IMG/VR virus record: IMGVR_UViG_3300045988_159773
Strand: one strand, 5' to 3'
Length of the DNA: 64,000 nucleotides
Source: a virus
In this document: positions 16,390 to 63,086 of the stretch, in pieces
Layout: the number at the start of each line of letters is the position of its first letter
How positions within the stretch are numbered: position 1 is the first letter of the stretch
Notes under the pieces: model-generated
What the model saw: only the letters and a program-made list of their open reading frames with translations
Told to the model about the DNA's origin: nothing
Database searches by the model: none
Made by a program: the position numbers and the translations under genes

Positions 16390-17049
16390 TCAGAACGGCA
16401 AGCCGTCGTCCTCTTCTTCCAACTTCAAGCACTTAACGTCCTCTTCAAACGTCGCCTTGATGTCAGCGAGATGGACGTACAGCGCAAGCTGAACCGTGCC
16501 GAACACATTCGAAATCGTTTTCGAATATCCCTTGTCATCGTCCTGATTTCCCATGTGAAACGAGATTGCCTGAATCTCGGGGAAGTAAAGTCTGATGAAC
16601 TGCTGCGCCACAATGACCGACTTCGAGCCGTGCCCCATAATCGGCATCGCCTCGTCAATCGTATAAACCTGCACCTCTTTCCAAGTGCCGTTCTCTTTCA
16701 CGTTGCGCGAGGATACCTTGTAGAAGTCCACTTTGCACAGGTCGTGCAAGAGTGCAACGATGATGATGTTCTCGTGGTCGACTTCCTCGTCGCGAGTGGT
16801 ATACTCTTCGAGCGATTCCCACTTATCGCCGTAGTAAAGCCTCATCATGTTGGCGTACACGTTCAGAGAATGCTGCGCCAGACCGCCGACACACGACAGA
16901 TGATACTGCGTGCTCGCGGGCGCGGTAAAGTAGTCTCTCTTTTCCAGATAGGAAATCAGTTTGTCGATTCCTTCGCGTCCCGTAAGGCGCAACAGCCGAA
17001 TGATTTCCTGTTTGTTTTCCTCGATTTTTTTCTGCGTAAGTCCTTCCAC
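16390..17049 (-). CDS. HD-domain phosphohydrolase
   Basis: GGLAQHSLNV ... IIVALLHDLCK (H...HD motif). GTG start follows GGAGGG. Confidence 0.75.
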   Translation of the reverse strand: MEGLTQKKIEENKQEIIRLLRLTGREGIDKLISYLEKRDYFTAPASTQYHLSCVGGLAQHSLNVYANMMRLYYGDKWESLEEYTTRDEEVDHENIIIVALLHDLCKVDFYKVSSRNVKENGTWKEVQVYTIDEAMPIMGHGSKSVIVAQQFIRLYFPEIQAISFHMGNQDDDKGYSKTISNVFGTVQLALYVHLADIKATFEEDVKCLKLEEEDDGLPF

Positions 17050-39245: not shown

Positions 39246-41351
39246 CTAAAGCCAAAAATTACTCTTTCCTTTCACCATCGTGACAACACCGCGAACGCAC
39301 CGAGCCACGCGCTCAGTCGTAATATCGTAGTCCGTCGGTATGTTCTTAAACTCCTTGTTTGGGGAACGCCAGCGCATAATATCCAGAACGGTAGTCGTGC
39401 ATTCTTGCAGTACCTGAATCTTGTTCTTTGCGAACCCGCCCTTGATGATGCTTGTCGACACCAAAATGTTATCGTCTTCAAACTCGTACATACCGAACAC
39501 GAATTGAGTAAGGTTGATGACTTGCTGATTGGTCGAGCAGTCATAGATAATCGTGCCTGGCTCAATCTGTTTTAAGAAGTCCGACAGCTCCGCCACAGAG
39601 GGGAACTTGTGCTCCTCGGTTACGGTGAAAATGTCCTTCGTCTGGTCGTGGCGAATTTTCAACGCGTAGTACAATCCGCCGCTCTCCGTCACGCCGAAGT
39701 AGTGATTCCAATACTCGGTATCGTGTGGCTTCTGGATAATGTTTTGGCTTGTGAACACGCCAGAATAAATGAACATATTCTTCTGCATGAAATGCGTGAT
39801 GACCAGCTGGGTGAACGCGTCGACATCGTCGTCATTCGCCACAGTAGGGAACGACATCAAGTGCCTACACAGCTCCGACACCCGCTCAGACTCAACGAAC
39901 TTTACACGACCCTGCCGCAGGTACACGACCGCCAACTCAAGCCTCGCCATCTTCGATCTAGTTCCTGGCTGGAACGGAATCAAACCTGCGACCGTACCAG
40001 CAAGCATCTGCAACAGCGGCGAACCATTCGCCTTGTCTTCCACGACTTGGAATATACTCGGGTCGATGGCTTCAAGGTTGATTAAGAATTCTTGCTCTTT
40101 GCTTATCGACATCCGCTCCATCATCGCGTCGGTGATGTACAGCGTCGAGAATTCGTCCGACCAGCCCTCAACGTAACCGTGTTGGTCGCTCGTTTCCAAA
40201 TCCTTGACAGGACAGTCGTGCGATGCGTAATGCGTAATCTTGTTGACAGCGGCAAAGTCTTCTTGCGTGATAGTTGCCGCATTGATGTCTTCAAGCGATA
40301 CAACGTTCAAGCCAGAAAGAGCCACGTTCTGTTGGAACTGACACTCAAAGTCAATTTCGCCCAACTTCATGCGCTCAACCGAGTAGTCTCCGAAACGCTT
40401 GCCAGCCAGCGGATCACCCTTCTTGCGAAACCAGATTTTGCCCGACAGCGGGAAAATGAATGCCTCGTCCTCAGTGGCGAGAGCCTTCAAAACTGTGTTC
40501 GAATAAAGTCTGGACAGCTCTGGGTCGGACGTAATCATATCCGATACGTCCCCTTTGCAAATCCTCTGCATGATATGGCAGGTGACTCCCGTCTTCGGGT
40601 CGTTCAAACGCGTAGACTGCGTGTACCTGATGTAATCCTTTGCAGACTGCAACACCTTACCGTCCGCACGCGCGTCCTGCACGTTGACCAAGTCATCGTT
40701 GAGGATAAAGTTAGAACCACGACCAGTAAACGACTTCATAGATGTCGAATAAGACTTGCCGAGATTTTGCATCTCCACCAGCGTCGAGCTGTCGTAACGC
40801 AAACGATACTCCTCTTCTGGGAACATCATTCTGAATTTCTCGCTATTCAGCAAAAGCCTCTTCTTGTCAATGAACTCACGCGACAGGTCTTGCGAGTGCG
40901 ACACCGAAGTGGTCATAACAGGTTGGTGCATCATGCACCACACAGGTCCGCATACGTTAACGATTAAGGACTTGCCAGCACGAGGGTGAATGTTGATGTT
41001 GTGGTTTCGTACGTGCTCGCCGCGAAACATCTTATCACGCACGTCACACTTAGGCATAATGCCCGTCTTCTTGAAGTACTTTATCTTTGCCTTCTCGTAT
41101 TCAGCGTCCGAGATGAATTTTGAGGTCAGTGATTCGGGCAGTTTGTTGACCGACATAAATACAAAGCATTCGCAAAGAAACTCAATATACGTCTCGTCCA
41201 CAAACGGAAACGGCTCAAACGTGTCCCAAAAATATTTGACAAACTCGTACAAGTCCGACATCACCAGCTCACGCATAGCGCGAATTGGCTTATACGTAAT
41301 CACTCCCAAATCAGGCAATTCTTTAACTTGTCGTTGTGATGAAACTCCCAT
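39246..41351 (-). CDS. terL: Terminase large subunit with a C-terminal extension of about 190 aa
   Basis: IHPRAGKS (Walker A), FILNDD (Walker B), and nuclease acidic motifs YASHDCP and NDDDVDAF. No SD; the ATG lies 6 nt after TATACT. Confidence 0.85.
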   Translation of the reverse strand: MGVSSQRQVKELPDLGVITYKPIRAMRELVMSDLYEFVKYFWDTFEPFPFVDETYIEFLCECFVFMSVNKLPESLTSKFISDAEYEKAKIKYFKKTGIMPKCDVRDKMFRGEHVRNHNINIHPRAGKSLIVNVCGPVWCMMHQPVMTTSVSHSQDLSREFIDKKRLLLNSEKFRMMFPEEEYRLRYDSSTLVEMQNLGKSYSTSMKSFTGRGSNFILNDDLVNVQDARADGKVLQSAKDYIRYTQSTRLNDPKTGVTCHIMQRICKGDVSDMITSDPELSRLYSNTVLKALATEDEAFIFPLSGKIWFRKKGDPLAGKRFGDYSVERMKLGEIDFECQFQQNVALSGLNVVSLEDINAATITQEDFAAVNKITHYASHDCPVKDLETSDQHGYVEGWSDEFSTLYITDAMMERMSISKEQEFLINLEAIDPSIFQVVEDKANGSPLLQMLAGTVAGLIPFQPGTRSKMARLELAVVYLRQGRVKFVESERVSELCRHLMSFPTVANDDDVDAFTQLVITHFMQKNMFIYSGVFTSQNIIQKPHDTEYWNHYFGVTESGGLYYALKIRHDQTKDIFTVTEEHKFPSVAELSDFLKQIEPGTIIYDCSTNQQVINLTQFVFGMYEFEDDNILVSTSIIKGGFAKNKIQVLQECTTTVLDIMRWRSPNKEFKNIPTDYDITTERVARCVRGVVTMVKGKSNFWL

Positions 41352-41415: not shown

Positions 41416-41703
41416 TCAGTGGGGCAACCCTTCGGCTTTCGCTTTCTCACGCAACGCCCGCAACTCTCTCGCGCTCATGCCCGACAGGTCTTTGGGATAC
41501 GTTGCAAAAAACTTTGCCGACTCCGCCGAGTTCGTATACGACTCACGCAAATAGGCATCATTCTTCTTTTTCTTATAATCAAGTCGCATCAAACACCACA
41601 TAAAGCTGCCATACCGCGCGACATATTGTGGATTGTAAACTGGCAAGTTCTGCTCGACTAAGAGGTAGTACCCGTACACCTCATTGAAGTCATATTGGTT
41701 CAT
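41416..41703 (-). CDS. Hypothetical protein
   Basis: 95-aa ORF overlapping the upstream stop. Confidence 0.5.
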   Translation of the reverse strand: MNQYDFNEVYGYYLLVEQNLPVYNPQYVARYGSFMWCLMRLDYKKKKNDAYLRESYTNSAESAKFFATYPKDLSGMSARELRALREKAKAEGLPH

Positions 41704-42149
41704 TTCACCGAGCAGACCTCAATCACCCGCATCGCGAACTCCTTGTCCTGGATTGCCGTGATTTGAAGTCCCATCGCCCGACAGATTGCCTCCGCCACCA
41801 TCATCACCTCTTCGTCAGAGAGATACGGGTCGAGCGTCGAAATGATTTTATAGTCCTGTCCATCGTGGTCGATGTAGTCAATGCACAATCTCGGGTACAC
41901 GATTGCCACCGATTTGACAGGTAGAGTGTCTCCGATTATGTAACAGTCAAGACAGTCCCCGTCACCATCCAACGTTGACGGAATAAAGCCGTAGTTTGCA
42001 AAGAACGGAATGTGATGAATATTTGTGACAGGGAAAAACTGCGGAGCGTTGTTCTTTACCTCACGCCGCACTTGTGTTCCCTTGGTCACCTCGACAACCG
42101 CCCGACAGGTGACCCCATTAAATTCATTTGGAAGTGTCAAATAATTCAT
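41700..42149 (-). CDS. ppa: Family I inorganic pyrophosphatase
   Basis: NYGFIPSTLDGDGDCLDCYIIGD...IDYIDHDGQDYKIIS follows the PPase pattern YGFIPQT..DGDPLDVLV...D.GE.D.KI. Confidence 0.75.
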   Translation of the reverse strand: MNYLTLPNEFNGVTCRAVVEVTKGTQVRREVKNNAPQFFPVTNIHHIPFFANYGFIPSTLDGDGDCLDCYIIGDTLPVKSVAIVYPRLCIDYIDHDGQDYKIISTLDPYLSDEEVMMVAEAICRAMGLQITAIQDKEFAMRVIEVCSVK

Positions 42150-42161
42150 CGTGCACCCACA

Positions 42162-43775
42162 TTAATCAATGGCCTTTGCAACGCCAGACGAAACCTGATG
42201 CCAGCCGTTCTTGGAAAGCTCGCTCTTCAATGCCTCTGGGGTAGTTTCGTTCATCGCGTATTTGTTGTACCCGAACATCCCCTCGCGCATAGAAAACTTC
42301 TTTCCGATGTAGAAATAAAGGTTCGGGTCAATGTTCGACTGCATCACGTAAACTATGGTGTCCCTGCCTGGCTCTTTGGTGGCTACGATACCATCCTTTA
42401 TCGCCGCACGAACTTTTGCCATCGCCTCAGCCGCGCTGTGAGCGCGTGTGTCGAATTTCTTGTCTCCAACGGACACACGAAACGACCTCAGCGCACCCGC
42501 TTTGTCGGCAAAGCAGTCAGAGAATTTGTCTTTGAAATTGTCAGCATAGTCTTCGGACATATCACAGTCCGTACTCTCGAACTTGAACTCGCCCGCTTCG
42601 CTGTCAAACACCACAGAGTCGAGCAGTTTAATCTTGCCCTGATTGATGTTCGTAACGACCTCATCATACGACAGCCGACCGCAGACATTACCATCCGCGC
42701 CGAACTGAACGATGAACTCTCCGCTGTTGATGTCGGGGATAATGCTCTCCACTACGCAAGGCGTTCCGAAGTAACGGATACGCTGACCTACCCGCAGTTT
42801 GTGAGAATCGCCTAGAATCTCTACTCCGTCGCGAATAGAGTCGTTGACCTTACGGATGAACAGCAGTTTGCCGTCCGATCCATTCAAATACGAGTAGAGC
42901 AATTTCGTGCCAGAGAGCAACCGAACGATAACGTCCTTGCCGCGTGCTTCCACGCTCGCCCCTGGGTAGTACGAGCGCAACTCTCCGATGTTGTTGAAAG
43001 AGCTTTTCGCCTCAAAATCTTCAAACTCAGCATCAGAGATAAACATACGTACATTCCTAACTCCGTGCTTCGATGCAAAATCCTTAGCCTCCGCCAAAGA
43101 ATATCCACCGTATACAGTGAGAACGTTAACGATATGTTGCTGCGTCATAGCACCGCTTGGAATACCCTTCAAATGCTCCTTGAGAACCTTGATTGTCTTA
43201 TCAAAGTCCACTTTATCCTTGACGTCAATAGAGTCTCGGATGCGTGCAACACCCGCGCGACCCGCTTCGCAAAGTGCGATATGATTGCCTCGAATATTTT
43301 TCATAATATATTGCCCGTTGACCTCCTCAATATCTGCGGTATAGCCGACAGACAAATCCCGCTTCTTCTTCGTCAGAATCTCGTCAATGACCACAGGGTC
43401 GGTGGCTACGATGTCCGCCATAAGGCATCCATCGAACTCACCCACGCCGCGCCGAATGTTGGTCATAAAACCCTTTTGCAGATAGCTGACCGTCTCGGGA
43501 GTAACGTTCTCTTCGGGGTGGTCGTCTACCAGCGGCTTGTAGTTCATCGACTTCATAGAGATTGGGTCGAACACTTCCTCGGGCGAGCGGTACACCTTCA
43601 CAATCTTATCAGGCGAGCCGTCTTCGATGAGTTCACTCTCACGATAGTCATAATAACCTGTACGCGCAAGAACAACGTTCTCGCATATCAGCTGACCGTT
43701 GTTGTCGCGCCACAGATTGTTGGAAATCTGCTCGCCGTAGATAGTATCTTTTATGCTGTCAGAAAATCTCCTCAT
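42162..43775 (-). CDS. DUF2213-like (prohead scaffold/protease-type) N-terminal domain fused to several small modules
   Basis: The N-terminus (LARTGYYDYRESEL...KVYRSPEEVFDP...PLVDDHPE...DLSVGYTADIE...IRGNHIALCEAGRAG) matches my recollection of DUF2213. Residues about 249-313 are paralogous to the C-terminus of 51507..52376. ATG at 43775 follows GAGGTGG. Confidence 0.55.
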   Translation of the reverse strand: MRRFSDSIKDTIYGEQISNNLWRDNNGQLICENVVLARTGYYDYRESELIEDGSPDKIVKVYRSPEEVFDPISMKSMNYKPLVDDHPEENVTPETVSYLQKGFMTNIRRGVGEFDGCLMADIVATDPVVIDEILTKKKRDLSVGYTADIEEVNGQYIMKNIRGNHIALCEAGRAGVARIRDSIDVKDKVDFDKTIKVLKEHLKGIPSGAMTQQHIVNVLTVYGGYSLAEAKDFASKHGVRNVRMFISDAEFEDFEAKSSFNNIGELRSYYPGASVEARGKDVIVRLLSGTKLLYSYLNGSDGKLLFIRKVNDSIRDGVEILGDSHKLRVGQRIRYFGTPCVVESIIPDINSGEFIVQFGADGNVCGRLSYDEVVTNINQGKIKLLDSVVFDSEAGEFKFESTDCDMSEDYADNFKDKFSDCFADKAGALRSFRVSVGDKKFDTRAHSAAEAMAKVRAAIKDGIVATKEPGRDTIVYVMQSNIDPNLYFYIGKKFSMREGMFGYNKYAMNETTPEALKSELSKNGWHQVSSGVAKAID

Positions 43776-43787
43776 ACCCACCTCTAC

Positions 43788-44405
43788 TTATGCCTGCGTG
43801 TCCACAACAGAGATAGTAACCGTGGTGTATTTTCCATCACGCCCAAGCAAAATTGTCCTCGTCCCGTTCTCAAGCTGCAACCACAGCACGAACGAGCCAG
43901 CCGCAAGACCAACAGTGGTGGCTTCTGTCACGTCCTGTTCCGTCAGTTCCTTGCCTCCGAACGAAGTACCGATGATGGTTGATTCACCAGTAGCAATCGC
44001 GACAGCGAGCCACGCGCGAGGTCCGAGAGTAGCCTCGATCGCATCGTCCGATACGTATTTTACGAGTTTGGAAAAATCCACCTCAATTCTGTAATTGGAA
44101 TCGTCAACCTTCGACATCGTCGCTGCTGCCTGATTGATAACCGCACTGTCGTGAATCTCCGCTTCCGCAGGTATTCCGCTCGCTGGAACGACCGACAGTG
44201 CAAGAGCCGTAAACACGTCAGCTGGTGCAGAGTCGACCTCAACATTGTAAGATCCGCCGAAACGTTCATAAAATAAGGCTTCCTGTCCTTTAACCAGAAC
44301 AGTCATAAAGTCCTTATCCTTAACTCCCAAATCGACGTAAGAACTCTTCATGCGGGTGAGAGTGTCACCCTCGCTACGGTCCATTTTTACGATATATTCT
44401 TTCAT
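43788..44405 (-). CDS. Hypothetical virion-module protein
   Basis: 205 aa with RBS AAGGAAGG. Confidence 0.5.
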   Translation of the reverse strand: MKEYIVKMDRSEGDTLTRMKSSYVDLGVKDKDFMTVLVKGQEALFYERFGGSYNVEVDSAPADVFTALALSVVPASGIPAEAEIHDSAVINQAAATMSKVDDSNYRIEVDFSKLVKYVSDDAIEATLGPRAWLAVAIATGESTIIGTSFGGKELTEQDVTEATTVGLAAGSFVLWLQLENGTRTILLGRDGKYTTVTISVVDTQA

Positions 44406-44417
44406 GATTACCTTCCT

Positions 44418-46067
44418 TTAATTCTTAAACCGCGAAATGCCTTTTGCGATATCAGACGAAGTGGTTGGAGTTGCCGAAATGTAATTGATTTTGTCCCCGC
44501 GAGCCTCGATGACCTTACGATATTTCGCAACGGCTTCATCCTCGCTGTTGGCGTCCACGATTACCGCTACGTTATTTCCGTAAGGGAAATCATTCGTGCA
44601 AGCCGTTACGGTGTACGCCGTGTCCTTCAAAGAGGACACCCGCTTGACAGCCGCCAGACTGTCGGTCGCTTTGACGAGTAGAGTCTTTCCCGTTGCCTTG
44701 TCCACGACCTTGAACATCTTGGTGGAATCCTTTATCTTCCTGTACCCATTCTTCGCCAACATTGTCTTAAACCCAGACACAGATGCCCCGTAAACATCTC
44801 CATCGCGGCTAAACTGCCACTCCACGTTGCCGCTATTCGTAATATTCGTCACAGTCAAAGTCGCTAAGCGAGCATTCTGATACTGCTGCCCCACCTTGAC
44901 ATCTTCACCCGCGTCCACAATCGGAGCATAGATGGTCGCGGCGTCTCTCGCCTCGATGATTCCCTTATTCTTGTACGCTGGGTTCATCTCGAGGAACTCC
45001 TTTACCGCCGCTTCTTTGGAAACCGCCGACCACTCAGCAACCTTATACGAACCAAAAGGTCCCTTGACGTAAATTTTGAACTCCTTCTCTGTTGCATCGC
45101 CTTTATACCCGTTGGCGTACATTGCACGAGTTTGAGCCGCCGCCTCTTTCTTGGTGGCAAACTGACCGTGCGTCCCTTCTTTTCCCTTGTTGGTGTACCC
45201 AGAGCCAGACTTGACGATGTCATCTTCCATTCCGAACGAGGTCTCTGAGTCAAGCAACTTGACCTTGCCCTCCCCAATGAGTTTCTGGAACTGTGCCTCG
45301 GTGAACTGACCGTCCACTGCCGCATTGCCGAACGGAACACCGCCGCCCCAATTGTAAAAACGGTACACGCCCTCGCGCAGTCCATTCTCGTTAGACGTGA
45401 TTTCAAAACCGCGATAAGAGCGACCGCCCTCCTGATAAAGACCGTAAGGGATGCCGTCCATGCTGCGACCTTCGCCGCCGACAATCTTGCCGTCCTTCAC
45501 CTCAGATGTGGAATCCAAAACAGTAAGGGTCACGCTCTTGTCCGAACGCAACTCGTAACACCCCTTGGAATTATTCCAAACCCAGTCCTCATCGCTCATT
45601 GGATTATAATCCTCAAGTCCCTTGTAAAGCACTTCACTTCCGCGCTTCACGACAACGAGGTCGTCCTCATACTCCAAACGACGTCCATCAGCAACTTCGG
45701 TATCACTCATCTTTTTTGCCGTATATTTGAGTTTATAATACGTCTTATCCCCAGCAGAACGTCTATCGTTTCTTCCCTTTGCACGCTCTTTTGCTTCTTC
45801 TTCAGAAAGATTTTCTACAACAAAATAATTTGTCTTTTCTCCGATAGCTCCACCAGATTTCCAAACTCCCCATTTCTCATCAGTAAAAGCGGAGTCGCGA
45901 TAGTCCACGTGCTTGCCCTCTGGCGTCTTGATGACATAGTTGGCATACTCGTTGGGATTGCCGCCCCAACTCTTTATCATGGCTTTCGCCTCTTCCATCG
46001 AGCCAGCGACCGAACCCGTCTTCTCCATGCCGCGAGCCGAATTGATATAAATTTCAAATTTTGCCAT
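44418..46067 (-). CDS. Multi-module protein built from repeated small beta-alpha modules
   Basis: 549 aa. Repeated (F/Y)x(I/V)x(I/V)...(S/T)xx(E/D)A helix units, with modules ending in x-D-(S/T/A). Confidence 0.55.
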   Translation of the reverse strand: MAKFEIYINSARGMEKTGSVAGSMEEAKAMIKSWGGNPNEYANYVIKTPEGKHVDYRDSAFTDEKWGVWKSGGAIGEKTNYFVVENLSEEEAKERAKGRNDRRSAGDKTYYKLKYTAKKMSDTEVADGRRLEYEDDLVVVKRGSEVLYKGLEDYNPMSDEDWVWNNSKGCYELRSDKSVTLTVLDSTSEVKDGKIVGGEGRSMDGIPYGLYQEGGRSYRGFEITSNENGLREGVYRFYNWGGGVPFGNAAVDGQFTEAQFQKLIGEGKVKLLDSETSFGMEDDIVKSGSGYTNKGKEGTHGQFATKKEAAAQTRAMYANGYKGDATEKEFKIYVKGPFGSYKVAEWSAVSKEAAVKEFLEMNPAYKNKGIIEARDAATIYAPIVDAGEDVKVGQQYQNARLATLTVTNITNSGNVEWQFSRDGDVYGASVSGFKTMLAKNGYRKIKDSTKMFKVVDKATGKTLLVKATDSLAAVKRVSSLKDTAYTVTACTNDFPYGNNVAVIVDANSEDEAVAKYRKVIEARGDKINYISATPTTSSDIAKGISRFKN

Positions 46068-47260
46068 TACAGTATACTCCCGTTAACCTGAATTACACGT
46101 GCGCCATGCACCGACTGAAGTGCCACATAGATATACGGAAATCTCTTTGCGCTTCGGTCAGCCGCCGAAATCGCATTGATAGGTACAAAGAACACCTTGT
46201 ACCCCAGCGGCAGAATGTCGCCATTTTGAATAATGGTATACTGCTTTCCGTTGTACGAAATCTTCTTGGTCTCGCCCGTATACGTCGCATCGGTTTCCAA
46301 GAAACCGTTATCAATGTACTTGACCAGCTGAGAGCGAATGGCGTCAATCAGTTTCGACTGCCCTTCCTGCGTCAGCGGCAGTTTGCCGAATAAGAGCTCG
46401 ATGTTGGCGTAGTCGAGGTCACGCTCAATGCGCGCCGCACCGAAGTCGAGCGAGATGGAAATCTTATCAGGCGAGCAATAGTCCCCGCCGATGTTAAGAA
46501 TTCTGTTCGCCACGTTTCCGATGAGATTGTAATACCCATTGTCCGCATCCTGCGTAAGCAGGGCGAAAGTCGTTTGGTCAATGTCCTCGAAGTGATTCTG
46601 ACCAAGCGACTCGGGAGTAAAGTTGTAATCCTGAATGGCGTTTTCGGTGCTGGTATCAACCTGTGAGAAGTACGCGCCGACCAGCAGAGCCGCATCGATG
46701 AGGTCACCAGAGGAAACCAAAGTCGAGTACTTCACCACCGACAGCGTCGTGTTGAGCGAGTTCGTGGTAACGAAGTCCGTCGTGTTTGCAGTAAAGCAAG
46801 CACGCATCGTGTTGAGTGATTTGTTGTCCGTCTCGCTCCATCCGTTGCCCGAACAGAAATTTGCAATGTTGAAAATTTCCGCAGAGGAATACGCACCCGA
46901 TTTCGCAGTCACGCTGTCGCTGAAAACCACAAAGAAGTAGTTGTCCACAACGCGCGTAACCGCACGCATGTCCGCCTTGAAACCGTCCAGCGAGAATACA
47001 CTCGGCGCAACGATACAGAGCGACGTGCCGCCGTTCTTAAAGTATTCAACAACGGACTGACGGATTGCCGCGCTCGTTGCTTGAATCTTGTTGTCGAAAT
47101 CCTCGACCGAATTTACAATGGCAAAATTGCCGCCGCCAATTTCTGGAGTATTCACCGTAACCGATGCAAAGTACACAGTCGTCCTGAAACCAGTAAAGGT
47201 CACAGGCTGGCTGAGTACTTCTATGTTTGCGCCTACGAAATTTTTAATCGAAATGCTCAT
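46067..47260 (-). CDS. Tail sheath-like protein (DUF3383-type pattern)
   Basis: 397 aa. The N-terminal pattern I.NFVGANIEVLSQPVTFTGF...VEYFKNGGTSLCIV resembles sheath/DUF3383 proteins as I recall them. Not verified by a search. Confidence 0.45.
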   Translation of the reverse strand: MSISIKNFVGANIEVLSQPVTFTGFRTTVYFASVTVNTPEIGGGNFAIVNSVEDFDNKIQATSAAIRQSVVEYFKNGGTSLCIVAPSVFSLDGFKADMRAVTRVVDNYFFVVFSDSVTAKSGAYSSAEIFNIANFCSGNGWSETDNKSLNTMRACFTANTTDFVTTNSLNTTLSVVKYSTLVSSGDLIDAALLVGAYFSQVDTSTENAIQDYNFTPESLGQNHFEDIDQTTFALLTQDADNGYYNLIGNVANRILNIGGDYCSPDKISISLDFGAARIERDLDYANIELLFGKLPLTQEGQSKLIDAIRSQLVKYIDNGFLETDATYTGETKKISYNGKQYTIIQNGDILPLGYKVFFVPINAISAADRSAKRFPYIYVALQSVHGARVIQVNGSIL

Positions 47261-47697
47261 TCGTCACCCTCCTCGAACGTTACCACGCCAGCCAAGAAAT
47301 TGAACGTACGGCTGCCCACAGATTCCGAAACCGTGTTGTCGGGAATCTTGTCGGGGAACACCCCACTGCCGTAACCCTGAATGTTACCAAGCAGGTCGGT
47401 GACCGTGATGGTGCTTTCAGCCAGATTTGGATTGGCTTCGCACCAATTTATAAACTTCGTCAACCTTGCGATTAACGAGCTGGACTGTGAAATCTGAATG
47501 TTGAAACTCCCCGTCCTATTCTTCGTATAGCCAGCAACGTAACCACCATCGGGTGAACCCTGCATGGTGAAAGCCGCATTACCGCGCGACATCGTAACCT
47601 GACCGACAAGATGACCATTCCCGCCGACCACGATTTGCTCGTAATTTGGATTATTGATGGTCAACGAAACCGTGGATAATGAAACTATCTTTGCCAT
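47257..47697 (-). CDS. Tail tube-like protein (DUF3277-type pattern)
   Basis: 146 aa. GSPDGGYVAGYTKNRTGSFNIQISQSSS..ARL and ITVTDLLGN...FPDKIPD fit my recollection of DUF3277. Preceded by GTTATTTTAATCAAGGAG. Confidence 0.45.
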   Translation of the reverse strand: MAKIVSLSTVSLTINNPNYEQIVVGGNGHLVGQVTMSRGNAAFTMQGSPDGGYVAGYTKNRTGSFNIQISQSSSLIARLTKFINWCEANPNLAESTITVTDLLGNIQGYGSGVFPDKIPDNTVSESVGSRTFNFLAGVVTFEEGDE

Positions 47698-48190: not shown

Positions 48191-48747
48191 ACCCTCCCAA
48201 GCCATACGATAAAGAATGGCGTAAGCACTATCAGTGCGTAAATCAAAAGAGCCAGCAACAGCACAAGCCACGTCTTCTTGACCACCACCCGAATCTTGTA
48301 CACGAAAAACGTGATAGGAGCGACCAAGAAAAATCCGATGGTTACGATGTATAGCGTGTTGAAAAACCATGACCACGCCTTCATCAGCATCACGCTGCTC
48401 TTGTTCGTTGTTTTCTCGTCATATCCGAAGTACGAACACGCCGCCTCATTCGCTTCGAAAAACGCCTTCTTGTCCGCTTTGTCTGCTTTGCTCTTTGCAA
48501 CCTTGAGGTGCGTATCAATTACAGAGTCAGCCGTCTCCAGAATCTTCTCTTTGACACCCTCGTCGGTCTGCACCTTGTGGACAATTCCTGCTTGCAATAC
48601 CGTCTCAACGAGGTCAGCCGCCTTGTCCACTTCGACAGGCGGCGCGGCGGGAGTAGAGTTCTCGTCCTTCGAGAAAAAGTAGTTTGGAACCGCTGGCGTA
48701 GTTTGCGCAGTCTCCTCTTTCGGTATCAACTCATTCGGTTCACTCAT
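48187..48747 (-). CDS. Membrane protein with C-terminal transmembrane segments
   Basis: WSWFFNTLYIVTIGFFLVAPITFFVY and WLVLLLALLIYALIVLTPFFIVWL. ATGA overlap with the portal stop. Confidence 0.55.
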   Translation of the reverse strand: MSEPNELIPKEETAQTTPAVPNYFFSKDENSTPAAPPVEVDKAADLVETVLQAGIVHKVQTDEGVKEKILETADSVIDTHLKVAKSKADKADKKAFFEANEAACSYFGYDEKTTNKSSVMLMKAWSWFFNTLYIVTIGFFLVAPITFFVYKIRVVVKKTWLVLLLALLIYALIVLTPFFIVWLGRV

Positions 48748-50342
48748 TTCTTACCACCTTCGAACAGAGAATTATAGTCCGTTCGTTTTGTATTCGTTGC
48801 GATTTTACGCTCTTCGTCTCTCGCTTCGTCCTCCCCACCTTCGTCCTGCGGCTCTTCTTCCGCTGCCTTGTCCGCGCGGCGGCAGAGTTCCAAGTCTCGG
48901 TCTTCAAGGTGGAGTCCGAACCCAGTCCTCTTCGATGCTGACTGCAACTCGAGGAACGCCGACTCGTGCGTCATCACACCCGCATCCATCAGTTCGATGA
49001 CTGCATCTTTGATGCTCGTCAGCTCTTCCTGCTTCGCTTTCTCCGTCCTGTCGTACAGAGGAATAAAGTCGAAGTCAAAGTCCTCCATCAGCTCCGTACC
49101 CGTAACCTTTGCGCCGAGAATGAGCAATTTGCGTACATTCTTGTAAAGCATCTCATTCTGCCGCACGCCAATAAAGTTCTCGTACATTCTCGCCTCTGGA
49201 CTCTCTTCGGAATTGAAAACACCCGTCTTCAAATCGCCGAACAGGTAGAACAGCGGCATATTGAACGCACCCGCAACAATCGGTCTGTTTGCGTCGATGA
49301 GCTGCGACAGCCCCGAAAAGTTCATCTCGTGCTTTTGGTAGTCGTCTGATGCGTCCAACAGCGCAACCCCATTGGAGCTACGGAAACTGTTGATAGCCGC
49401 CATCTGACCAGACAGTACCGCGCTTGCCGCCGCATTGCCTCCCGCCAGACCAGTCATAACACTGCGAAGTCCTTGCAGTTTGATGATTTCGACTAAGGCT
49501 TTGTTCACCAGCGATGCCGAACTGTTCTTCACGTTGGAATAGTTCATAAGGTCTTGCAGAACCGCCTCAACCTCAGAAACACCCCAGCCCATCAACTGGA
49601 CTTCAACTAGCCGCACGCTTCTCTTATTCACCCAGCGCAGAACGCGAGTATGGTGCACCTTTACAGACTCGCCCACTCCATCAATCTGGAAATTGTAAAA
49701 CTTCGGCTCGCCGAACGCTGGGTCTTGAAAGTCATCAACCTTCTCCGTGCTTTGCTCCACTCCATACCAACGGTCAGTAGTGTAAAAGTTGACACGCGAA
49801 CCCTTCTTCACTCGGTCAAGTTTCAACGGTTTTGAAAGGTCTTTCTCGCCGTCGTCAACCATCATTAAAGTGACAGCACCGCCGAACAGTCTCGCTTGCT
49901 CGGTGGCGTAAATCATTTCAGAGTTTTGGCGGGCGAACCAAGTGTATAGGTTCTTCAATTTGTTCGGGTCTTCCTGGTCTCGAATTTCGACACCACGCGC
50001 CCACATATCCTCAGCGACCTTGTCAACGCCTTTGCGTAATTCCCAGCACGAATGGTAAAGCGCGGTGAGCTCCGAACGATTGAACGTAATCATGTTCATA
50101 TCGTAGTAGCCCGCCATCGTGTTCGCCGCGAACGTTCCAGTCTTTTGAATAGGGTTGCCGAAATAGCCGTCAGCCATCTGAGCTCCAGCTACCACACCCT
50201 TTGCAACTGCGTCGTTGAGAGCCACCTCCATATCATGACCAGCCTGTTGCTGGGAATTCTTAGAGATTGTCCCGCTCACCGAGATGGACTTATCTTTTGA
50301 CCGTGCAATATTCGCGTCCGCTACCTTGTCTTTTATATCCAT
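48744..50342 (-). CDS. Portal protein (DUF1073-type pattern)
   Basis: 532 aa with an acidic C-terminal tail. Size, position and overall pattern (..LFGGAVTLMMVDDG.., ..WGVSEVE..) suggest a portal. Not verified. Confidence 0.65.
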   Translation of the reverse strand: MDIKDKVADANIARSKDKSISVSGTISKNSQQQAGHDMEVALNDAVAKGVVAGAQMADGYFGNPIQKTGTFAANTMAGYYDMNMITFNRSELTALYHSCWELRKGVDKVAEDMWARGVEIRDQEDPNKLKNLYTWFARQNSEMIYATEQARLFGGAVTLMMVDDGEKDLSKPLKLDRVKKGSRVNFYTTDRWYGVEQSTEKVDDFQDPAFGEPKFYNFQIDGVGESVKVHHTRVLRWVNKRSVRLVEVQLMGWGVSEVEAVLQDLMNYSNVKNSSASLVNKALVEIIKLQGLRSVMTGLAGGNAAASAVLSGQMAAINSFRSSNGVALLDASDDYQKHEMNFSGLSQLIDANRPIVAGAFNMPLFYLFGDLKTGVFNSEESPEARMYENFIGVRQNEMLYKNVRKLLILGAKVTGTELMEDFDFDFIPLYDRTEKAKQEELTSIKDAVIELMDAGVMTHESAFLELQSASKRTGFGLHLEDRDLELCRRADKAAEEEPQDEGGEDEARDEERKIATNTKRTDYNSLFEGGKK

Positions 50343-51068: not shown

Positions 51069-51476
51069 TTAGCCGCGCTTAGTTTGGCTCACGATTTCAT
51101 CAACTCGTTTATCACCCTCGGCTATGAGTTTTTCGGCTTCTTTCTGTATCTGCTGCTTCACTTTCTTCCACTCAGCAACGAAACCAGCCAAGCCGTCACG
51201 CTTAACGGCGGCAGTGAACTCTTCGCGGCTCTTGATGTTGTTCTGCTTTACATACGCAGACTCCCACTCAGAATAGAGTCGTCTTGCAACTTCTCCGCGC
51301 TCCACAGTCCAGAGGTATTTTGCCGCCTCGACCGCTTCTCGCGAATCAAAATCTTTGACCGCAACGCCACGCGCGATAGAGTCCTTTATATCTTTTGCCT
51401 GACGAACAGCGTCGACCTCTTTGTCAGCCGTGATTAAAAGTTCAATGCCATCGTTCAAGGTAACTTTGTATTTCAT
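51069..51476 (-). CDS. Hypothetical protein with one N-terminal small module
   Basis: MKYKVTLNDGIELLITADKEVDAVRQAKDIKDS, followed by a helical region. Confidence 0.5.
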   Translation of the reverse strand: MKYKVTLNDGIELLITADKEVDAVRQAKDIKDSIARGVAVKDFDSREAVEAAKYLWTVERGEVARRLYSEWESAYVKQNNIKSREEFTAAVKRDGLAGFVAEWKKVKQQIQKEAEKLIAEGDKRVDEIVSQTKRG

Positions 51477-51506: not shown

Positions 51507-52376
51507 CTAGTTTCGTCCTCGGATAAAAATCAGAGTACCGCCGTCCCCGTACGCGTATTCGAGTTCCGCCCCACTCTTAAGTATGACAGTCATACCGTCG
51601 CTGCGTGGACGGAGCGATGCCCCCACGTAGTGACTTTTAAGCTCTCCAATGCTTCCGAAAGAGCCTTTTGCCATATAATCCGAGAAAGCCGAATCACCAA
51701 TGCCGTACACAGACTTCAACATCTCCGCCGCAACCCTGCGAGCCTCGTCCTCGGTGGTGAACACCGTCTTCTCGGCGAACGGAGTAGAGCTGAACTTGAT
51801 GAATCCATTCGGACTGTATCTCGTCCACCATCCCTTGTCCGATGTGATTGCCCAGCCCCCGTCAACCTTGACAACATTACCTGCGGCGGGCGCGTCCTTG
51901 ATTACCTTTGGAACTTCGTCACCCCACAGCGACTTGTTGAACAGCGTGGTGACGAAAAACTCGCCAGCGGGAACCTTAGACCCGAACCGAACCTCGGTGC
52001 CGTTTTCCTTATAGGTCTCGCCGTTCGGTGCCTTAAAATAGTAGTACCCAGACGGAGCCTGGTGCATACGCCACTTTTTAGTAGGGCGTGCATCCTGCAC
52101 AGGCTGCTCACCCTCAGTTGGAAAGTCGGAATTATCCACCGAGTCCGTGCCCACGATTTTGGCAGTAGAGTGCTTATTGAAAATCTTGCTCAAATCGCTG
52201 ATGTGGTCGATTTCTGCATTGCGAAGTCGCTCCAGCTCAATGCGGTCAGACTCGTCCCAATCGCACGCCTTCAAAACTTTATCATAGCCCGAAATTGCTT
52301 CGGTTTCGTCAACAATGAGAAAATTCAAAGCGTCGCGCTTTGTCATTCCTTTCTCGATAATTTCTTCTTTATCCAT
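51507..52376 (-). CDS. Multi-module protein: ferritin-like N-terminus, small modules, and a C-terminal domain shared with 42162..43775
   Basis: FLIVDETEAISGYDKVL...RNAEIDHISDL is ferritin/rubrerythrin-like. ATG at 52376 follows GGAGG. The track ORF starts 4 codons earlier. Confidence 0.55.
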   Translation of the reverse strand: MDKEEIIEKGMTKRDALNFLIVDETEAISGYDKVLKACDWDESDRIELERLRNAEIDHISDLSKIFNKHSTAKIVGTDSVDNSDFPTEGEQPVQDARPTKKWRMHQAPSGYYYFKAPNGETYKENGTEVRFGSKVPAGEFFVTTLFNKSLWGDEVPKVIKDAPAAGNVVKVDGGWAITSDKGWWTRYSPNGFIKFSSTPFAEKTVFTTEDEARRVAAEMLKSVYGIGDSAFSDYMAKGSFGSIGELKSHYVGASLRPRSDGMTVILKSGAELEYAYGDGGTLIFIRGRN

Positions 52377-52412
52377 CTGAGCCTCCATTTATTAAAATAA
52401 CCAAGTAGCCGC

Positions 52413-58566: not shown

Positions 58567-60432
58567 CTACGAGAACTGTTTACCAAACTCCGCGATAAAT
58601 TGTTCGCGCGTATACGTAATTATTGCCCCATCGACAATCTTGGTCTCGTACTTTCCTTTGCCACCCTTTATCCAGTGGCTTTGAATGTTCAGCCCGCGAG
58701 CCACTTTGATGGGAAATTGAATGTCGTCAAGCGATGCCACTGGAATCGGAACGCACCGACAATTTCCCACAAAAATCGCTGGACAAAGTTGATAAATTCC
58801 AGTATAATGTTCAATGTTATGAACAAACAAAGAATCTATTCTTCTGACTTTTTTCACAAGGCGCACAAAATGCACACCATCGATAGAATCCCTATTTGCA
58901 AGGTCGCTTCCATCCTTGGATGCAAGAGCGACACGCTCAAGAATGGATTTATTCGTCTCGGACTCCCATTCACACTCAACATCCCCCCTGCGCAAAGCAA
59001 ACTCCCCTCGAATAAAATTATTGACAAATTTAATAAAGGTCAGTCTGTTCTCAGCCTTTCCAAAGAATTCAACGTCGACCGTGGAGTTATTGTGAGACTG
59101 CTCAACAACAACGGAATCAAAGAGCGTACTGGTAGCCAAGCCAATATTATCAGATTCCAAAACACACCGCAAGACCAACTCAAACAGCTCACCAAATCTG
59201 CCAATGAGACTCTGCGCGGCAGAAAGTACACCGCTGACGAACTCCACGCCCGCGCCCTTAAAAGAGAGGTCAACGGAACTATGCACGCGCACATCGGATT
59301 CTTTGAAAACGAAGTCCGACAGGAATTTGAAAAGTTCGGATATAAAGTCACTCCGCAAAAAGCTATCTACGGATACAATGTCGACCTCTTTATCAACGAT
59401 TCCGTCATTGTGGAAGTCGAACCCGTTGCTCAATTCCTTTTCAAGATGCCCAGCACACATAAAGGCAAAAAACTTAAAGAGCTGCTCAAAGGAAATTACA
59501 AGGTCATCTACATTGTTCCCATGAGCAAATCCGCGACTCCCTATAACATAGTCCCCCTCTTCCAACTCCTTGACCGAACGGAAACCGACTGGAGTCACGA
59601 ATGGGTGATTAGGTGTAACAGTGACGGTAATGCCATCATCGAAAGTTAAATCAAAGACTTCCCCCTCATACTCTCTGCGGTAAACCTTATTTATTCCGTA
59701 GAGAGTTTTTATTTCTGTTTCACCACTAAAACAATTAATGAACCGACCGCAGTGGTTCTGGTAGTTGTCAATCGTTGGCGGGTCATTCCAAAAGAACAGC
59801 ACCCCGTCCAGAATAGAGTGGGAACTACGCACCCGCGAGTCCTCGCTTGTCGACCAGATGTAAGCGTTCAGTCCGATTTTCTGCATACGTAATTGGGTAA
59901 GCGTCGAGGTGATTTTTGCAGACTCTGTGCGGATGATTACCCGCGCTCGCTTGCCCAGTCGCTCCGTCAGTTCTTTGGCAAACTCCGTACCGCGAAACGC
60001 CGTCCCTCTCTTATACGCCCTTTCCATATCGAGCGCGATGTCCTGCGGCAGGTCTTTGATTAAGGACACGTTATGCCTGAACGCCTCCATGAACCTGTCG
60101 TAGTCCTCTTTGTTGTTCAGCAGATTTTTCGCCCGCAAATTCAAGTACTTGTTCCGTGGATTCTGAATGAACGCGCCGACAATCAACTCGAACTCCTTGC
60201 CCGACTTTGCAAAAGTCGAGTTCGACAGGTTGAGGATGGATTGCTTCAACGGCTTTATGGTAAACTCGTGCAAAATCATATCAACCTCTTCGTATGATTT
60301 TGCCTTGCGAATGCGCGACGTAAGCTGTGCCTCGACTTGCGCTTTGAACGCCGCCGTCAGCAGATTCTCCTGTGTCCAATTCGATTTCAGTTTGCGATTT
60401 ATCTTCCTACGGAGTCTTTTCGTCAATTTCAT
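58567..60432 (-). CDS. MuF/SPP1-gp7-like minor head protein interrupted by a 324-aa intein
   Basis: MuF motifs ARVIIRTESAKI, SRVRSSHSILDG and FFWNDPP. The conserved H..CRC motif is split as NHCGRFIN | intein | CRCVPIPV. Confidence 0.8.
   Translation of the reverse strand: MKLTKRLRRKINRKLKSNWTQENLLTAAFKAQVEAQLTSRIRKAKSYEEVDMILHEFTIKPLKQSILNLSNSTFAKSGKEFELIVGAFIQNPRNKYLNLRAKNLLNNKEDYDRFMEAFRHNVSLIKDLPQDIALDMERAYKRGTAFRGTEFAKELTERLGKRARVIIRTESAKITSTLTQLRMQKIGLNAYIWSTSEDSRVRSSHSILDGVLFFWNDPPTIDNYQNHCGRFINCFSGETEIKTLYGINKVYRREYEGEVFDLTFDDGITVTVTPNHPFVTPVGFRSVKELEEGDYVIGSRGFAHGNNVDDLVISFEQLFKFFAFMCAGHLEKELSNGFDFHNDGIVDKEVDIVSVDSFLRSDFISELFKFLSDFVFKESDVRVHSSVDLSFKGAGVEFVSGVLSAAQSLIGRFGELFELVLRCVLESDNIGLATSTLFDSVVVEQSHNNSTVDVEFFGKAENRLTFIKFVNNFIRGEFALRRGDVECEWESETNKSILERVALASKDGSDLANRDSIDGVHFVRLVKKVRRIDSLFVHNIEHYTGIYQLCPAIFVGNCRCVPIPVASLDDIQFPIKVARGLNIQSHWIKGGKGKYETKIVDGAIITYTREQFIAEFGKQFS
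58780..58808 (+). promoter_or_regulatory. Plus-strand sigma-70-type promoter TGGACA-17-TATAAT in front of the antisense nuclease gene
   Basis: Hexamers and the 17-nt spacer were counted directly. The in-frame ATG at 58819 lies 11 nt after the -10 element, so the leader would be very short. Confidence 0.55.
58819..59649 (+). CDS. HTH plus PD-(D/E)xK-like nuclease (putative homing endonuclease), encoded antisense inside the intein
   Basis: MNKQRIYSS...IPICKVASILGCKSDTLKNGFIRLGL...SVLSLSKEFNVDRGVIVRLLNNNGI (two HTH-like segments) ...ENEVRQEFEKFGYKV...YNVDLFINDSVIVEVEP. It uses no TTA, CTA or TCA codons and has its own promoter. It is the only protein-like plus-strand ORF in the window. Confidence 0.6.
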   Translation: MNKQRIYSSDFFHKAHKMHTIDRIPICKVASILGCKSDTLKNGFIRLGLPFTLNIPPAQSKLPSNKIIDKFNKGQSVLSLSKEFNVDRGVIVRLLNNNGIKERTGSQANIIRFQNTPQDQLKQLTKSANETLRGRKYTADELHARALKREVNGTMHAHIGFFENEVRQEFEKFGYKVTPQKAIYGYNVDLFINDSVIVEVEPVAQFLFKMPSTHKGKKLKELLKGNYKVIYIVPMSKSATPYNIVPLFQLLDRTETDWSHEWVIRCNSDGNAIIES

Positions 60433-61417: not shown

Positions 61418-62761
61418 TTATTCAGAGTTTCGCTCGAACGCTTCTTGCTCCATTACCACATACCTATCCACAATTTCAGAGTTCGAAAAAGTAGCCTTCG
61501 CATGAGGATTAAAACCCGTAACAAAAAGACCATCCAACGAGCGCACACGACTGAACGCAACGTATACTTGCCCATTCATAAACATCCTTGAGCAATCAAT
61601 AAATGCCGCGTCAACCGACGTGCCCTGTGATTTATGTACGGTTATAGCATAAGCCAACCGCAACGGCAACTGGTTGATGGTTGCCAGCGTGACGTCAATT
61701 CCGCGCTCGTTTTTCTCGGTCGGATTAAAGATGGTCTCTTCTTCGACCGTGTACACGATGCCGCTGTCAAACCGCACGATGGGATTGCCGTAGGTATCGG
61801 AAAGCCCGAACCCCTCATCCTCCGTTCCAATGCCAGAGAACCCGATGACCTCACCCAGAGAGCCGTTGAACAGATACCCTCCGTCAACGTCCTTGTTCTT
61901 ACACATCATCACCCGCGCACCGACACGCAACACCAACTCCTCTGGAATTAGCGAGTCTTTCCAATACGCTCGAATAAGGTTCTCGTCTCCGTAGGAATCC
62001 GCGCGGAACTTTCGCTCCGTGGCGGGGTCAAGTTTGTTGAACTTGAACACATTGTACTGGTCAACCTCTGCGTTGGTCGAGAACAGCCGAATTGCCGTGT
62101 CATCGGCGGGAACCTCGCGCGACTTGATACGTGCAATGTCCTGCGCGTTCAACTTGTTGTACCTCAACCGAGTAAGGATACGGTAGAACTCGTCGTCCCC
62201 AGACTGACGGAAATTCGATGTCATAAGCATCGTCTTGATGTTTGCCTCTTTCCAACACTTGCAGTCCCAGCAGATTTTATCGTTGGCTGACGTGCCCTTA
62301 AACACAGGCGGCAACTGCAAAAAGTCACCGAACAGCGCGACCTGAACCCCGCCGAACGGAAGTGAGGAATCCCTCACCATCTTACAAATCTCGCTCACAC
62401 ACTCGAGCAGAGCGTCCGACACCATCGAAATCTCGTCGATTATGAGTAACTTTGCCGAACGGACAGCCCAACCCCGCTTACCAGCATCAACCTTATTCGC
62501 ACTCTCCTTTGCGTTCGGCGCACTGGGATTGATGAGGAACTGCGAGTGCAACGTGCGCCCGCCGACATTGTTCGCCGCGATGCCCGTGCTTGCCGTCGTC
62601 AATACTCGACCCTTGTAGTTCGCTCGTATGAAGTCAATAAGGAAAGACTTGCCAGCACCCGCGCGTGCGGTTACAAACAAGTTCTCCCCAGCATTGAGGG
62701 CGTCCCAGCACATCTTTTGGTCAACGCTTAATATTGAAGTGTCTACAATCCTTTCGTCCAT
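61418..62761 (-). CDS. Pif1/RecD/Dda-like superfamily 1 DNA helicase
   Basis: TARAGAGKSF (Walker A), ASTGIAANNVGGRTLHS, LLIIDEISMV (Walker B) and the C-terminal AITVHKSQGTSVD. Confidence 0.8.
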   Translation of the reverse strand: MDERIVDTSILSVDQKMCWDALNAGENLFVTARAGAGKSFLIDFIRANYKGRVLTTASTGIAANNVGGRTLHSQFLINPSAPNAKESANKVDAGKRGWAVRSAKLLIIDEISMVSDALLECVSEICKMVRDSSLPFGGVQVALFGDFLQLPPVFKGTSANDKICWDCKCWKEANIKTMLMTSNFRQSGDDEFYRILTRLRYNKLNAQDIARIKSREVPADDTAIRLFSTNAEVDQYNVFKFNKLDPATERKFRADSYGDENLIRAYWKDSLIPEELVLRVGARVMMCKNKDVDGGYLFNGSLGEVIGFSGIGTEDEGFGLSDTYGNPIVRFDSGIVYTVEEETIFNPTEKNERGIDVTLATINQLPLRLAYAITVHKSQGTSVDAAFIDCSRMFMNGQVYVAFSRVRSLDGLFVTGFNPHAKATFSNSEIVDRYVVMEQEAFERNSE

Positions 62762-62918: not shown

Positions 62919-63086
62919 TCACACCCCCTTCCAGACAACGCAGTACGGATACTTTTTGCTGTCCAGCCCTCCGAGATAAACGCATGCATCATAATCCTCG
63001 TCGTTCTTGTCGCAGAGGATGCCGCCGTCTTTCTTTACGCACTCCTCCGCCTGTTCCTTCGTTTCAAATACCTGAAACCTCGTCAT
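62919..63086 (-). CDS. Small protein consisting of one copy of the repeated small module (55 aa)
   Basis: My translation: MTRFQVFETKEQAEECVKKDGGILCDKNDEDYDACVYLGGLDSKKYPYCVVWKGV. RBS AAGGAGGA. Confidence 0.45.
   Translation of the reverse strand: MTRFQVFETKEQAEECVKKDGGILCDKNDEDYDACVYLGGLDSKKYPYCVVWKGV

Follow-up and report, generated by a model that had tools for sequence, protein, structure and literature searches.

Strings of small modules on a scaffolding protein and its neighbour in the virion gene block of an uncultured tailed phage

Introduction

The described systems closest to the subject of this report are the polyvalent proteins of phages, the internal proteins of phage T4 and the scaffolding protein gp24 of phage Pa193. 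Our subject is a pair of genes in a 64,000-nucleotide stretch of viral DNA (IMG/VR record IMGVR_UViG_3300045988_159773; this whole stretch is called the window below) from an uncultured tailed phage of ~95 kb. They encode protein A of 549 amino acids (aa) and a scaffolding-type protein B of 539 aa, and both carry strings of small domains, here called modules.

For polyvalent proteins, packaging and delivery into host cells have been proposed (Iyer et al. 2017, PMC5512222). They share with the genes described here the presence of many domains in one chain, a variable architecture and a neighbourhood of portal and terminase genes. A first-pass annotation of the window, made from the sequence alone, had pointed to this class. 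The likeness holds in that the proteins are multi-domain mosaics in a packaging and head neighbourhood, A having nine modules of at least six families and orthologues of 308-850 aa. It does not extend to the domains catalogued for polyvalent proteins (ART, peptidases, methylases, helicases, ArdC, LPD), none of which Pfam detected in A or its modules, and the modules of A are much smaller (36-89 aa) and unannotated.

In T4, internal proteins are packed in the scaffolding core and trimmed by the prohead protease, and IPI is injected (PMC9958956). The likeness of IPI-III and Alt to the present case is that of small proteins for which residence in the scaffolding core, cutting at a short acidic motif and injection along with the DNA have been proposed. 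They have no sequence similarity to the modules of A. Here several modules are chained or fused to the scaffolding protein, with a putative cut site that ends in Asp. Finally, gp24 of Pa193 is a protein with a putative scaffolding role; it remains in the mature virion, bound to the inner side of the capsid at the five-fold vertices (PMC11456595). B has in common with this protein of Pbunavirus-like myophages the N-terminal domain and a comparable head gene context. B and its uncultured relatives differ in adding long and variable C-terminal strings of mini-domains, for a total of 473-791 aa, and A differs in being without the DUF2213 domain. A is thus placed as a mosaic, multi-domain, virion-associated protein, which is a known theme, built here from undescribed mini-domain families.

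Protein A is a mosaic of nine modules

A is a real open reading frame (ORF), kept in position among relatives, and is built like beads on a string from nine modules of 36-89 residues (a1 to a9; Table 1). Pfam and PHROG have no family for the whole protein. For its segments 1-145, 192-278, 268-549, 324-378 and 372-549 the matches are to different metagenomic proteins, with 50-100% identity. Among 1.84 billion representatives, searched exhaustively, 529 clusters had E-values of 1e-3 or below. Among the matches listed, most of the best ones span A 277-325 only, and others cover just 119-190, 50-127, 325-378 or 444-508. The boundaries of a1 to a9 were set from such homology limits together with the secondary structure predicted by AlphaFold2 (AF2). 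Every module retrieves its own family, and at an E-value of 1e-4 no module recruits another protein of the window. At least six families are represented. Most of the modules are predicted by the models to fold independently.

Five of the modules lie outside the recurrent family of the next section. Module a2 has homologues of its own (P0124, P0126, P0131). Module a3, with AF2 strands between 129 and 173, is also found as stand-alone proteins of 65-71 aa (P0190, P0205, P0235). Module a4 is present in P0003, P0004, P0008, P0019-23 and P0041 at 56-93% identity. Its C-terminal part (A 245-276; 45240-45335, minus strand) resembles B 358-389 (42615-42710, minus strand); the two have a common '...GK(V/I)KLLDS' end, and hhalign gives an E-value of 4e-4 between the families. 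Module a7 is modelled as strands within 392-429 and a helix at 433-439, and the whole of A 372-549 is 90-98% identical in P0010-P0017.

The remaining one, a5, has the consensus VKxGxxWxNKGKEGTHGxFxTKKEAxAQRxAMFANGYKG and is found in about 500 representative clusters. It is often C-terminal, in proteins of 65-1384 aa, and one 65-aa version stands alone. Eight large a5-bearing proteins had no Pfam domain above threshold and no PHROG match, and the a5 consensus, used in tblastn against 50,697 phage records, gave no match. Among the modules of A a single weak Pfam signal was seen, from a5 to DUF2188 (PF09954). That family and YegP/DUF1508 have in common with the modules a small strands-then-helix build and a helix start of the 'T-K-x-E-A' type. 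The DUF2188 matches have sub-threshold E-values of 0.0015-0.07. A 277-323 scores 13.7 bits (E-value 0.072), P0211 19.1 bits and P0193 17.8 bits, all below the 22-bit cut-off and over profile positions 4-41.

Structural comparison added little. A and C had no match among PDB chains at the sequence level, and the full models of A and B, compared with the PDB by Foldseek, gave no significant match. Against viral models, the sole significant Foldseek match (E-value 2.4e-8) was a DUF2213 protein of ctqZP6, which shares a6 with A. Phage proteins of 60-71 aa and unassigned function were also matched with a target-normalised template modelling (TM) score of 0.68-0.74 and a probability of 1.00, at an E-value of only 0.17-0.2. 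A like order of elements is seen in T7 Gp2 (weak Foldseek match to 4lk0_M, target-normalised TM score 0.63, E-value 1.4) and in the B1 domain of protein G (GB1; weak profile matches, E-values 0.02-0.05). These matches are not significant and give no sign of common descent or shared function. A DNA-condensing role was also considered. The net charge of the modules is without a consistent basic bias, and such a role is therefore unsupported.

A recurrent hairpin-helix family

One family, which we call type I, recurs in the window. It consists of a beta hairpin and an N-capped helix, with or without a third strand, and its core reads like V-x-V-x-A-x-S-x-x-E-A-V-x-K-V. There are six copies in three genes: A 1-58, 324-380, 447-482 and 483-549 (a1, a6, a8 and a9), B 429-466, and residues 1-33 of protein D (D1). 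We regard a1, a8 and D1 as probable, not certain, members.

The family emerges from iterative searches with hidden Markov models (HMMs). An HMM begun from A 482-549 recruits A 332-378 through intermediate sequences, with zero reversed or shuffled decoys, so that an internal repeat that BLASTP does not find in A is found by profile. Decoy-controlled expansion converges on a 30-column core with the consensus VKDGVYKVVIVRANSEEEAVKKVKKYNPAY and 22 clusters below 50% identity. In the window the core HMM scores 39.3 bits for A 490-523, 38.4 for A 334-365 and 17.2 for B 441-460, against 4.1 for the next window protein and 5.1 for the best decoy. A 35-sequence MAFFT alignment of the type shows two invariant alanines in a consistent register. 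An HMM built from five hand-picked seeds from outside the window recovered A 499-518 only, barely above shuffles, and a profile search with the long-form alignment returned no matches.

We also compared 25 module alignments, each built strictly separately, by hhalign in 300 pairs. Among the 33 best pairs (E-values below 0.005), 32 are intra-family and one is a control pair, and none joins a member to a control. The key E-values are 6e-36, 6e-9 (F9-FV), 7e-8 and 3e-6, with a9 reaching 6e-36, 6e-9 and 3e-6 against separate families. The B module is joined at 2.9e-5 (FB-FQ), a6 at 3e-4 (F6-F161) and, to a9, at 1e-3 (F6-F9), a8 to D1 at 7.6e-4 (F8-FD), and a1 at a borderline 1.5e-3 to two core type-I families. 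As a measure of noise, forty random 45-aa segments of other window proteins had 7e-4 as the best E-value, 6e-3 as the next and 0.08 as the median. By hhalign alone, a1, a8 and D1 are therefore borderline against random segments. The orthologues in related loci settle most of that doubt. With the type-I HMM, orthologues of a8 score 12.9-13.4 bits, the D orthologue in locus L004 ('KYRVSLNDSMDLLVVADSEVEAVRKAKAVKD') scores 15.0, and fragments of the a1 orthologue are picked up, that of L008 at 7.7. In the three syntenic loci all type-I matches of 6 bits or more fall in A-, B- or D-type genes. In addition, the top non-self window match of the a8 HMM is D 10-32 at 7.3 bits, with the best decoy at 5.2. 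Module a8 aligns in MAFFT with a 'FTIEYEQDG..RANSIEDAISKV' module, with V465, A467 and A473 invariant, and the B module aligns with its equivalent in ~58-kb phages with F434, R435, A447, A453 and K456 invariant.

The predicted structures have a like order of elements in these members. The order strand-strand-helix-strand is found at A 1-55, 328-375 and 484-535, with a predicted local distance difference test score (pLDDT) of ~50-90, and strand-strand-helix at A 450-478 and B 432-465. In a1 the strands are 4-10, 13-21, 42-47 and 53-55 and the helix 24-33 (pLDDT 75-87). In a6 there are strands 328-336, 339-348 and 370-375 and helix 351-361 (pLDDT 75-89). In a9 there are strands 484-491, 499-505 and 527-535 and helix 509-522; it is the C-terminal module in most, although not all, A-type relatives. 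Module a8 has strands 450-456 and 461-467 and helix 470-478, and the B module strands 432-438 and 441-447 and helix 450-465 at low pLDDT. In a2 only a helix at 89-99 is modelled, with low confidence.

How far the type-I family coincides with what had been proposed can now be stated. The first-pass annotation had reported one unit, loosely reminiscent of YegP/DUF1508 repeats and amplified at least nine times over six ORFs, and noted a resemblance to injected effectors of the polyvalent kind. Its observation is confirmed in part, and its interpretation has partial support. The ORFs and the quoted peptides are where it placed them, and a recurrent small beta-alpha module is indeed present in large proteins of the virion block. 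It spoke of six ORFs and named five. Five of its nine examples, plus the new copy a8, belong to one family over three ORFs, and the proteins are multi-domain and in the virion block. The other four examples fall to noise level by their best hhalign E-values: A 81-98 in a2 (0.017), A 301-320 in a5 (0.14), C 207-226 ('KTVFTTEDEARRVAAEMLKS', 51711..51770, minus strand; 0.021, and recruited by no HMM) and the 55-aa ORF E (0.16, and 2.8 bits with the a5 HMM, below decoys). With four examples outside the recurrent family and at least six families in A, a single module amplified nine times is not what these genes contain. Nor is there a DUF1508 match even at E-values up to 10, either for ten single modules of A and E or for 35 type-I modules, and the type-I family matches neither DUF2188 nor DUF1508. 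The hhalign results largely refute the reading of one YegP/DUF1508-like module amplified nine times into injected effectors; the missing polyvalent domains also count against it, and we give it a very small probability.

The motif by which the unit had been defined, [FY]x[IV]x[IV]...[STN]xx[ED]A, fits two of the nine examples (A 1-29 and B 433-452) and two other places in the proteome. Its helix start, [STN]xx[ED]A, is found at 9 places in the five ORFs, or 5.7 per 1000 aa, and at 38 (2.1 per 1000 aa) in the rest of the proteins, which makes it ~2.8-fold denser in the five ORFs. It is a common helix-capping pattern and no family signature. This raises the alternative that there is no family at all, only a generic signature of a strand and an N-capped amphipathic helix that arose independently in unrelated small domains. 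The 38 occurrences of S/T-x-x-E capping elsewhere in the window proteome are in its favour, as is the one random segment in 40 that reached an hhalign E-value of 7e-4. Furthermore, the PDB structures that the type-I profile matches best are TIM barrels designed de novo ('AIVDADNPADAIQQVKDL', four copies), KDPG aldolase, GB1 and CheY. From such matches it follows that the 20-residue core is an idealised strand/N-cap/helix unit, and hence that the weakest links, those of a1, a8 and D1, could be convergence. On the other side, the strong links (6e-36, 6e-9, 7e-8, 3e-6) extend across 30-60 columns, which take in the third strand as well as the two of the hairpin. The intra-family pairs dominate the hhalign comparison with zero member-control pairs, no decoys are recruited, and matches of 6 bits or more in three related loci are confined to A-, B- and D-type genes. 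We treat the strong links as homology, and independent origin throughout as quite improbable.

Modules in proteins B, C, D and E

B contains PF09979 (DUF2213, now Pa193_gp24) at aa 26-183, with an E-value of 8e-37 and 127 bits against a cut-off of 22. Residues 26-194 align with the solved structure of Pa193 gp24 (PDB chain 9b40_G, E-value 1.2e-9). In PHROG the domain falls in families annotated as 'head maturation protease'.

BLASTP among six proteins (the five ORFs and F) gives only one significant similarity, between B 248-313 (42843-43040, minus strand) and C 230-293 (51510-51701, minus strand), which are 48% identical with an E-value of 1e-13. This second shared module has no relation to the motif above. 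It is modelled by AF2 as one strand, a helix and four more strands, and it also occurs in other DUF2213 proteins. The helical N-terminal module of C (aa 7-76; 52161-52370, minus strand) recurs in the otherwise unrelated a5-bearing proteins P0240, P0231, P0164 and P0179, and C is therefore also a mosaic. A ferritin-like nature of this N-terminus was considered and is unsupported by the Pfam and PDB-chain searches.

On 60 public contigs the E ORF has been called as a gene. When modules of A, B, C, D and E were joined into one chimeric query, only close relatives of A, B and C came back. D and E themselves were not returned, though they are in the collection, and the search is therefore uninformative on homologues of D and E.

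Relatives exchange whole modules

The syntenic relatives that we compared are loci L004, L008 and L009. The conserved order is portal, tube-like gene, 397-aa gene, A-type gene, ~205-aa gene, DUF2213 gene, pyrophosphatase and large terminase subunit (TerL). In the three relatives the genes around the A-type and DUF2213 genes are constant in length: the portal (532 aa), genes of 151-154, 145-146, 396-397 and ~205 aa, TerL (~700 aa) and the pyrophosphatase. Where the window has an A-type gene of 549 aa, theirs measure 658, 308 and 850 aa, and their DUF2213 genes measure 529, 649 and 537 aa, compared with 539 in the window. Among syntenic relatives only these two genes vary in length, and they do so by the gain and loss of whole modules.

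The same modules are on the scaffolding proteins of E217-like phages of ~58 kb, a group unrelated to the window phage; one ~58-kb contig comes from a human gut sample. In these phages the DUF2213 protein of 473-791 aa carries a6 at ~80% identity, then another type-I module and variable extras. In all, ~100 related scaffolding proteins were retrieved, and copies of a6 ~80% identical are in the C-terminal extensions of ~100 DUF2213 proteins. Module a6 and its copy in locus L001 are 82% identical in amino acids and 71% in nucleotides, with synonymous differences in 27 of 45 conserved codons, which implies an old divergence under purifying selection. Also in L001, a 148-aa gene just downstream of the major capsid gene (16264-16710) begins with a type-I module, 'MKKFIVDTGDKKYKVEANTYDEAISAVKAIQ', at 12.8 bits. 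Stand-alone genes for a3 and a5 sit in small-gene clusters, in one case with a5 among DNA methyltransferase genes.

These observations bear on whether the modules are simply parts of the scaffolding system, binding the capsid interior, the portal or DNA, or acting as spacers, and then degraded or inert, with no effectors among them. This is the main rival to the explanation proposed below. B is a scaffolding protein like Pa193 gp24. Purifying selection has conserved a6, the next type-I module and the B 467-539-type module in two phage lineages with E217-like structural genes in common, which fits binding to a conserved virion partner. The searches, moreover, detected no effector domain. However, the number and identity of modules vary widely among close relatives in which the other structural genes are constant in length, which is unusual for essential assembly parts, and stand-alone copies of a3 and a5 are found in the small-gene clusters and beside the methyltransferase genes just mentioned. 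We consider a purely structural role a substantial minority possibility.

Module junctions

Where modules meet, there is a motif of a hydrophobic residue, any residue and Asp, followed by Ser, Thr or Ala. Module ends across families read ...LLD|S, ...ARD|S/A, ...IKD|S, ...LKD|T, ...VND|S and ...VID|A/T, and the C-terminus of B reads ...AID. D58, D185, D183-S184 and D314 show little or no variation in alignments with differing flanking modules. The ends of BLAST alignments on A lie at most three residues from the aspartate of a hydrophobic-x-D-[SAGT] site in 21 of 39 cases, against 6.6 expected (P ~3e-4, with the 39 ends counted as independent).

Possible roles of the modules

The descriptive part of our account, comprising the mosaic, the type-I family, the link to scaffolding, the length variability and the junction motif, we hold with high confidence. 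What the modules do is a separate matter, and for the whole, mosaic plus cargo, the best explanation overall is in our view that they are capsid passengers, which we put at somewhat under an even chance. The modules would be carried into the procapsid by the scaffolding protein or, in A, by its conserved C-terminal block. The head-maturation protease may separate them, cutting after the junction Asp. They might then act as independent small binding domains inside the head or, by analogy with the T4 internal proteins, in the host after ejection. The mechanism of cargo and cleavage, taken by itself, is doubtful. A stronger version is less probable again: the scaffolding/protease gene and its neighbour would be polyproteins of packaged mini-effectors, cut after the junction Asp (hydrophobic-x-D|S/T/A) into a strain-specific cocktail of 4-9 kDa that is injected against host defences and reshuffled at the junctions.

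Several points weigh against the capsid-passenger explanation. The presence of A in the virion, its location in the capsid interior, its cleavage and its ejection are steps that we infer, and a location in the tail is possible, because A is just downstream of the tube-like and sheath-like genes. The AF2 models have low overall confidence (mean pLDDT 52.8 and 56.3). The protease activity of B is putative and comes from annotation. Foldseek of the B model gave no significant PDB match to a protease fold, with DegP-like matches at E-values of 0.4-0.6. Pfam and PHROG, with single modules included among the queries, detected no known effector, toxin or anti-defence domain. The D-S/A dipeptide has no overall enrichment, and its position at the junctions alone is significant. 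The junction pattern itself has three readings that are inseparable here: a protease site comparable to the short acidic ones of other prohead proteases, a conserved joint at which the exchange of modules is favoured, or what could be plain linker or domain-end chemistry.

The position of A beside tube-like and sheath-like genes also suits another alternative, in which the arrays decorate the outside of the virion in the manner of Hoc or Ig-like domains and give weak adhesion, for example to gut mucus. Variable small-domain arrays on structural proteins are known in other phages. The present phages come from metagenomes, and one related ~58-kb contig is from the human gut. Against decoration, the scaffolding protein carries the same modules at its C-terminus, and in Pa193 this protein lies inside the capsid. 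The modules are alpha/beta mini-domains, and Pfam found no Ig, FN3 or other known adhesion domain. We regard surface decoration as the least probable of the alternatives; it and the absence of any family are both less likely than capsid passengers or a structural role.

Gene context

Every gene of the window is on the minus strand (Table 1). A is flanked by portal, MuF, tube-like, sheath-like, scaffolding and TerL genes, which is a packaging and virion neighbourhood. The pyrophosphatase gene keeps the same position in relatives. A major capsid protein gene was looked for across the window and none was identified, and genes of 284 and 382 aa near TerL had no matches. Megablast of 42000-47300 and tblastn of A found no match in the 50,697 phage records, and the TerL of the nearest cultured phage is only 29% identical. 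Proteins of the window are found on up to 60 public contigs.

Table 1. Modules and genes of the virion gene block, with positions in the window.
Feature	Position	Strand	Remarks
a1, aa 1-58	45894..46067	minus	probable type I, long form (strand-strand-helix-strand-strand)
a2, aa 59-123	45699..45893	minus	separate family, not type I; holds 'YFVVENLSEEEAKERAKG' of the first-pass annotation
a3, aa 124-187	45507..45698	minus	beta-rich
a4, aa 188-276	45240..45506	minus	beta-rich, ending GKVKLLDSE
a5, aa 277-323	45099..45239	minus	widespread ~45-aa module, not type I; holds 'GQFATKKEAAAQTRAMYANG' of the first-pass annotation
a6, aa 324-380	44928..45098	minus	type I, robust
a7, aa 381-446	44730..44927	minus	beta-rich; part of conserved A-type C-terminal block
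a8, aa 447-482	44622..44729	minus	probable type I, short form (hairpin and helix); absent from the first-pass annotation
a9, aa 483-549	44421..44621	minus	type I, long form, robust
B, aa 429-466	42384..42497	minus	type-I module, robust
D, aa 1-33 (D1)	51378..51476	minus	probable type I, short form; support mainly via orthologue
E, aa 1-21	63024..63086	minus	in 55-aa ORF 62919-63086; not supported as type I
MuF-like head protein	58567-60432	minus	Phage_Mu_F at aa 131-223
C	51507-52388	minus	virion gene block
D	51069-51476	minus	virion gene block
Portal	48744-50342	minus	virion gene block
DUF4054 protein		minus	between portal and tube-like gene in transcription order
Tube-like protein	47257-47697	minus	virion gene block
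Sheath-like protein, 397 aa	46067-47260	minus	match to a PHROG 'tail sheath' family only, E-value 2.6e-12
A, 549 aa	44418-46067	minus	start overlaps stop codon of the upstream 397-aa sheath-like gene
F	43788-44405	minus	between A and B
B, 539 aa	42162-43781	minus	DUF2213 domain, then 350-aa module string
Inorganic pyrophosphatase	41700-42149	minus	between scaffolding gene and TerL
TerL	39246-41351	minus	then neck terminator and baseplate genes

Some features further upstream are recorded for completeness. The MuF-like protein has an insert in which a below-threshold intein-splicing match covers aa 243-363 (E-value 1.4e-5, 25 bits; cut-off 35.8). Antisense inside this insert is a 349-aa ORF (58600-59649, plus strand) with a weak restriction-endonuclease-like match (E-value 0.0012). 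A PIF1-like helicase (61418-62761, minus strand; E-value 1e-32) is encoded just upstream of the region that holds ORF E.

Implications

These phage lineages appear common in public metagenomes. In the lineage of the window, two unannotated strings of mini-domains are the only length-variable genes of a conserved head and neck block, and they contain at least two undescribed module families, the type-I hairpin-helix unit and the 'NKGKEGTHGxFxTKKEA..ANGYKG' unit. A caution for annotation is that the S/T-x-x-E-A helix start is unusable as a family signature. Even if the role of the modules is only structural, domain boundaries are gained for many 'hypothetical' proteins. If the modules are packaged cargo, phages would have in them a compact and modular means of carrying and exchanging small proteins directed at the host, and the junction motif would indicate the cleavage specificity of the DUF2213 protease/scaffold.

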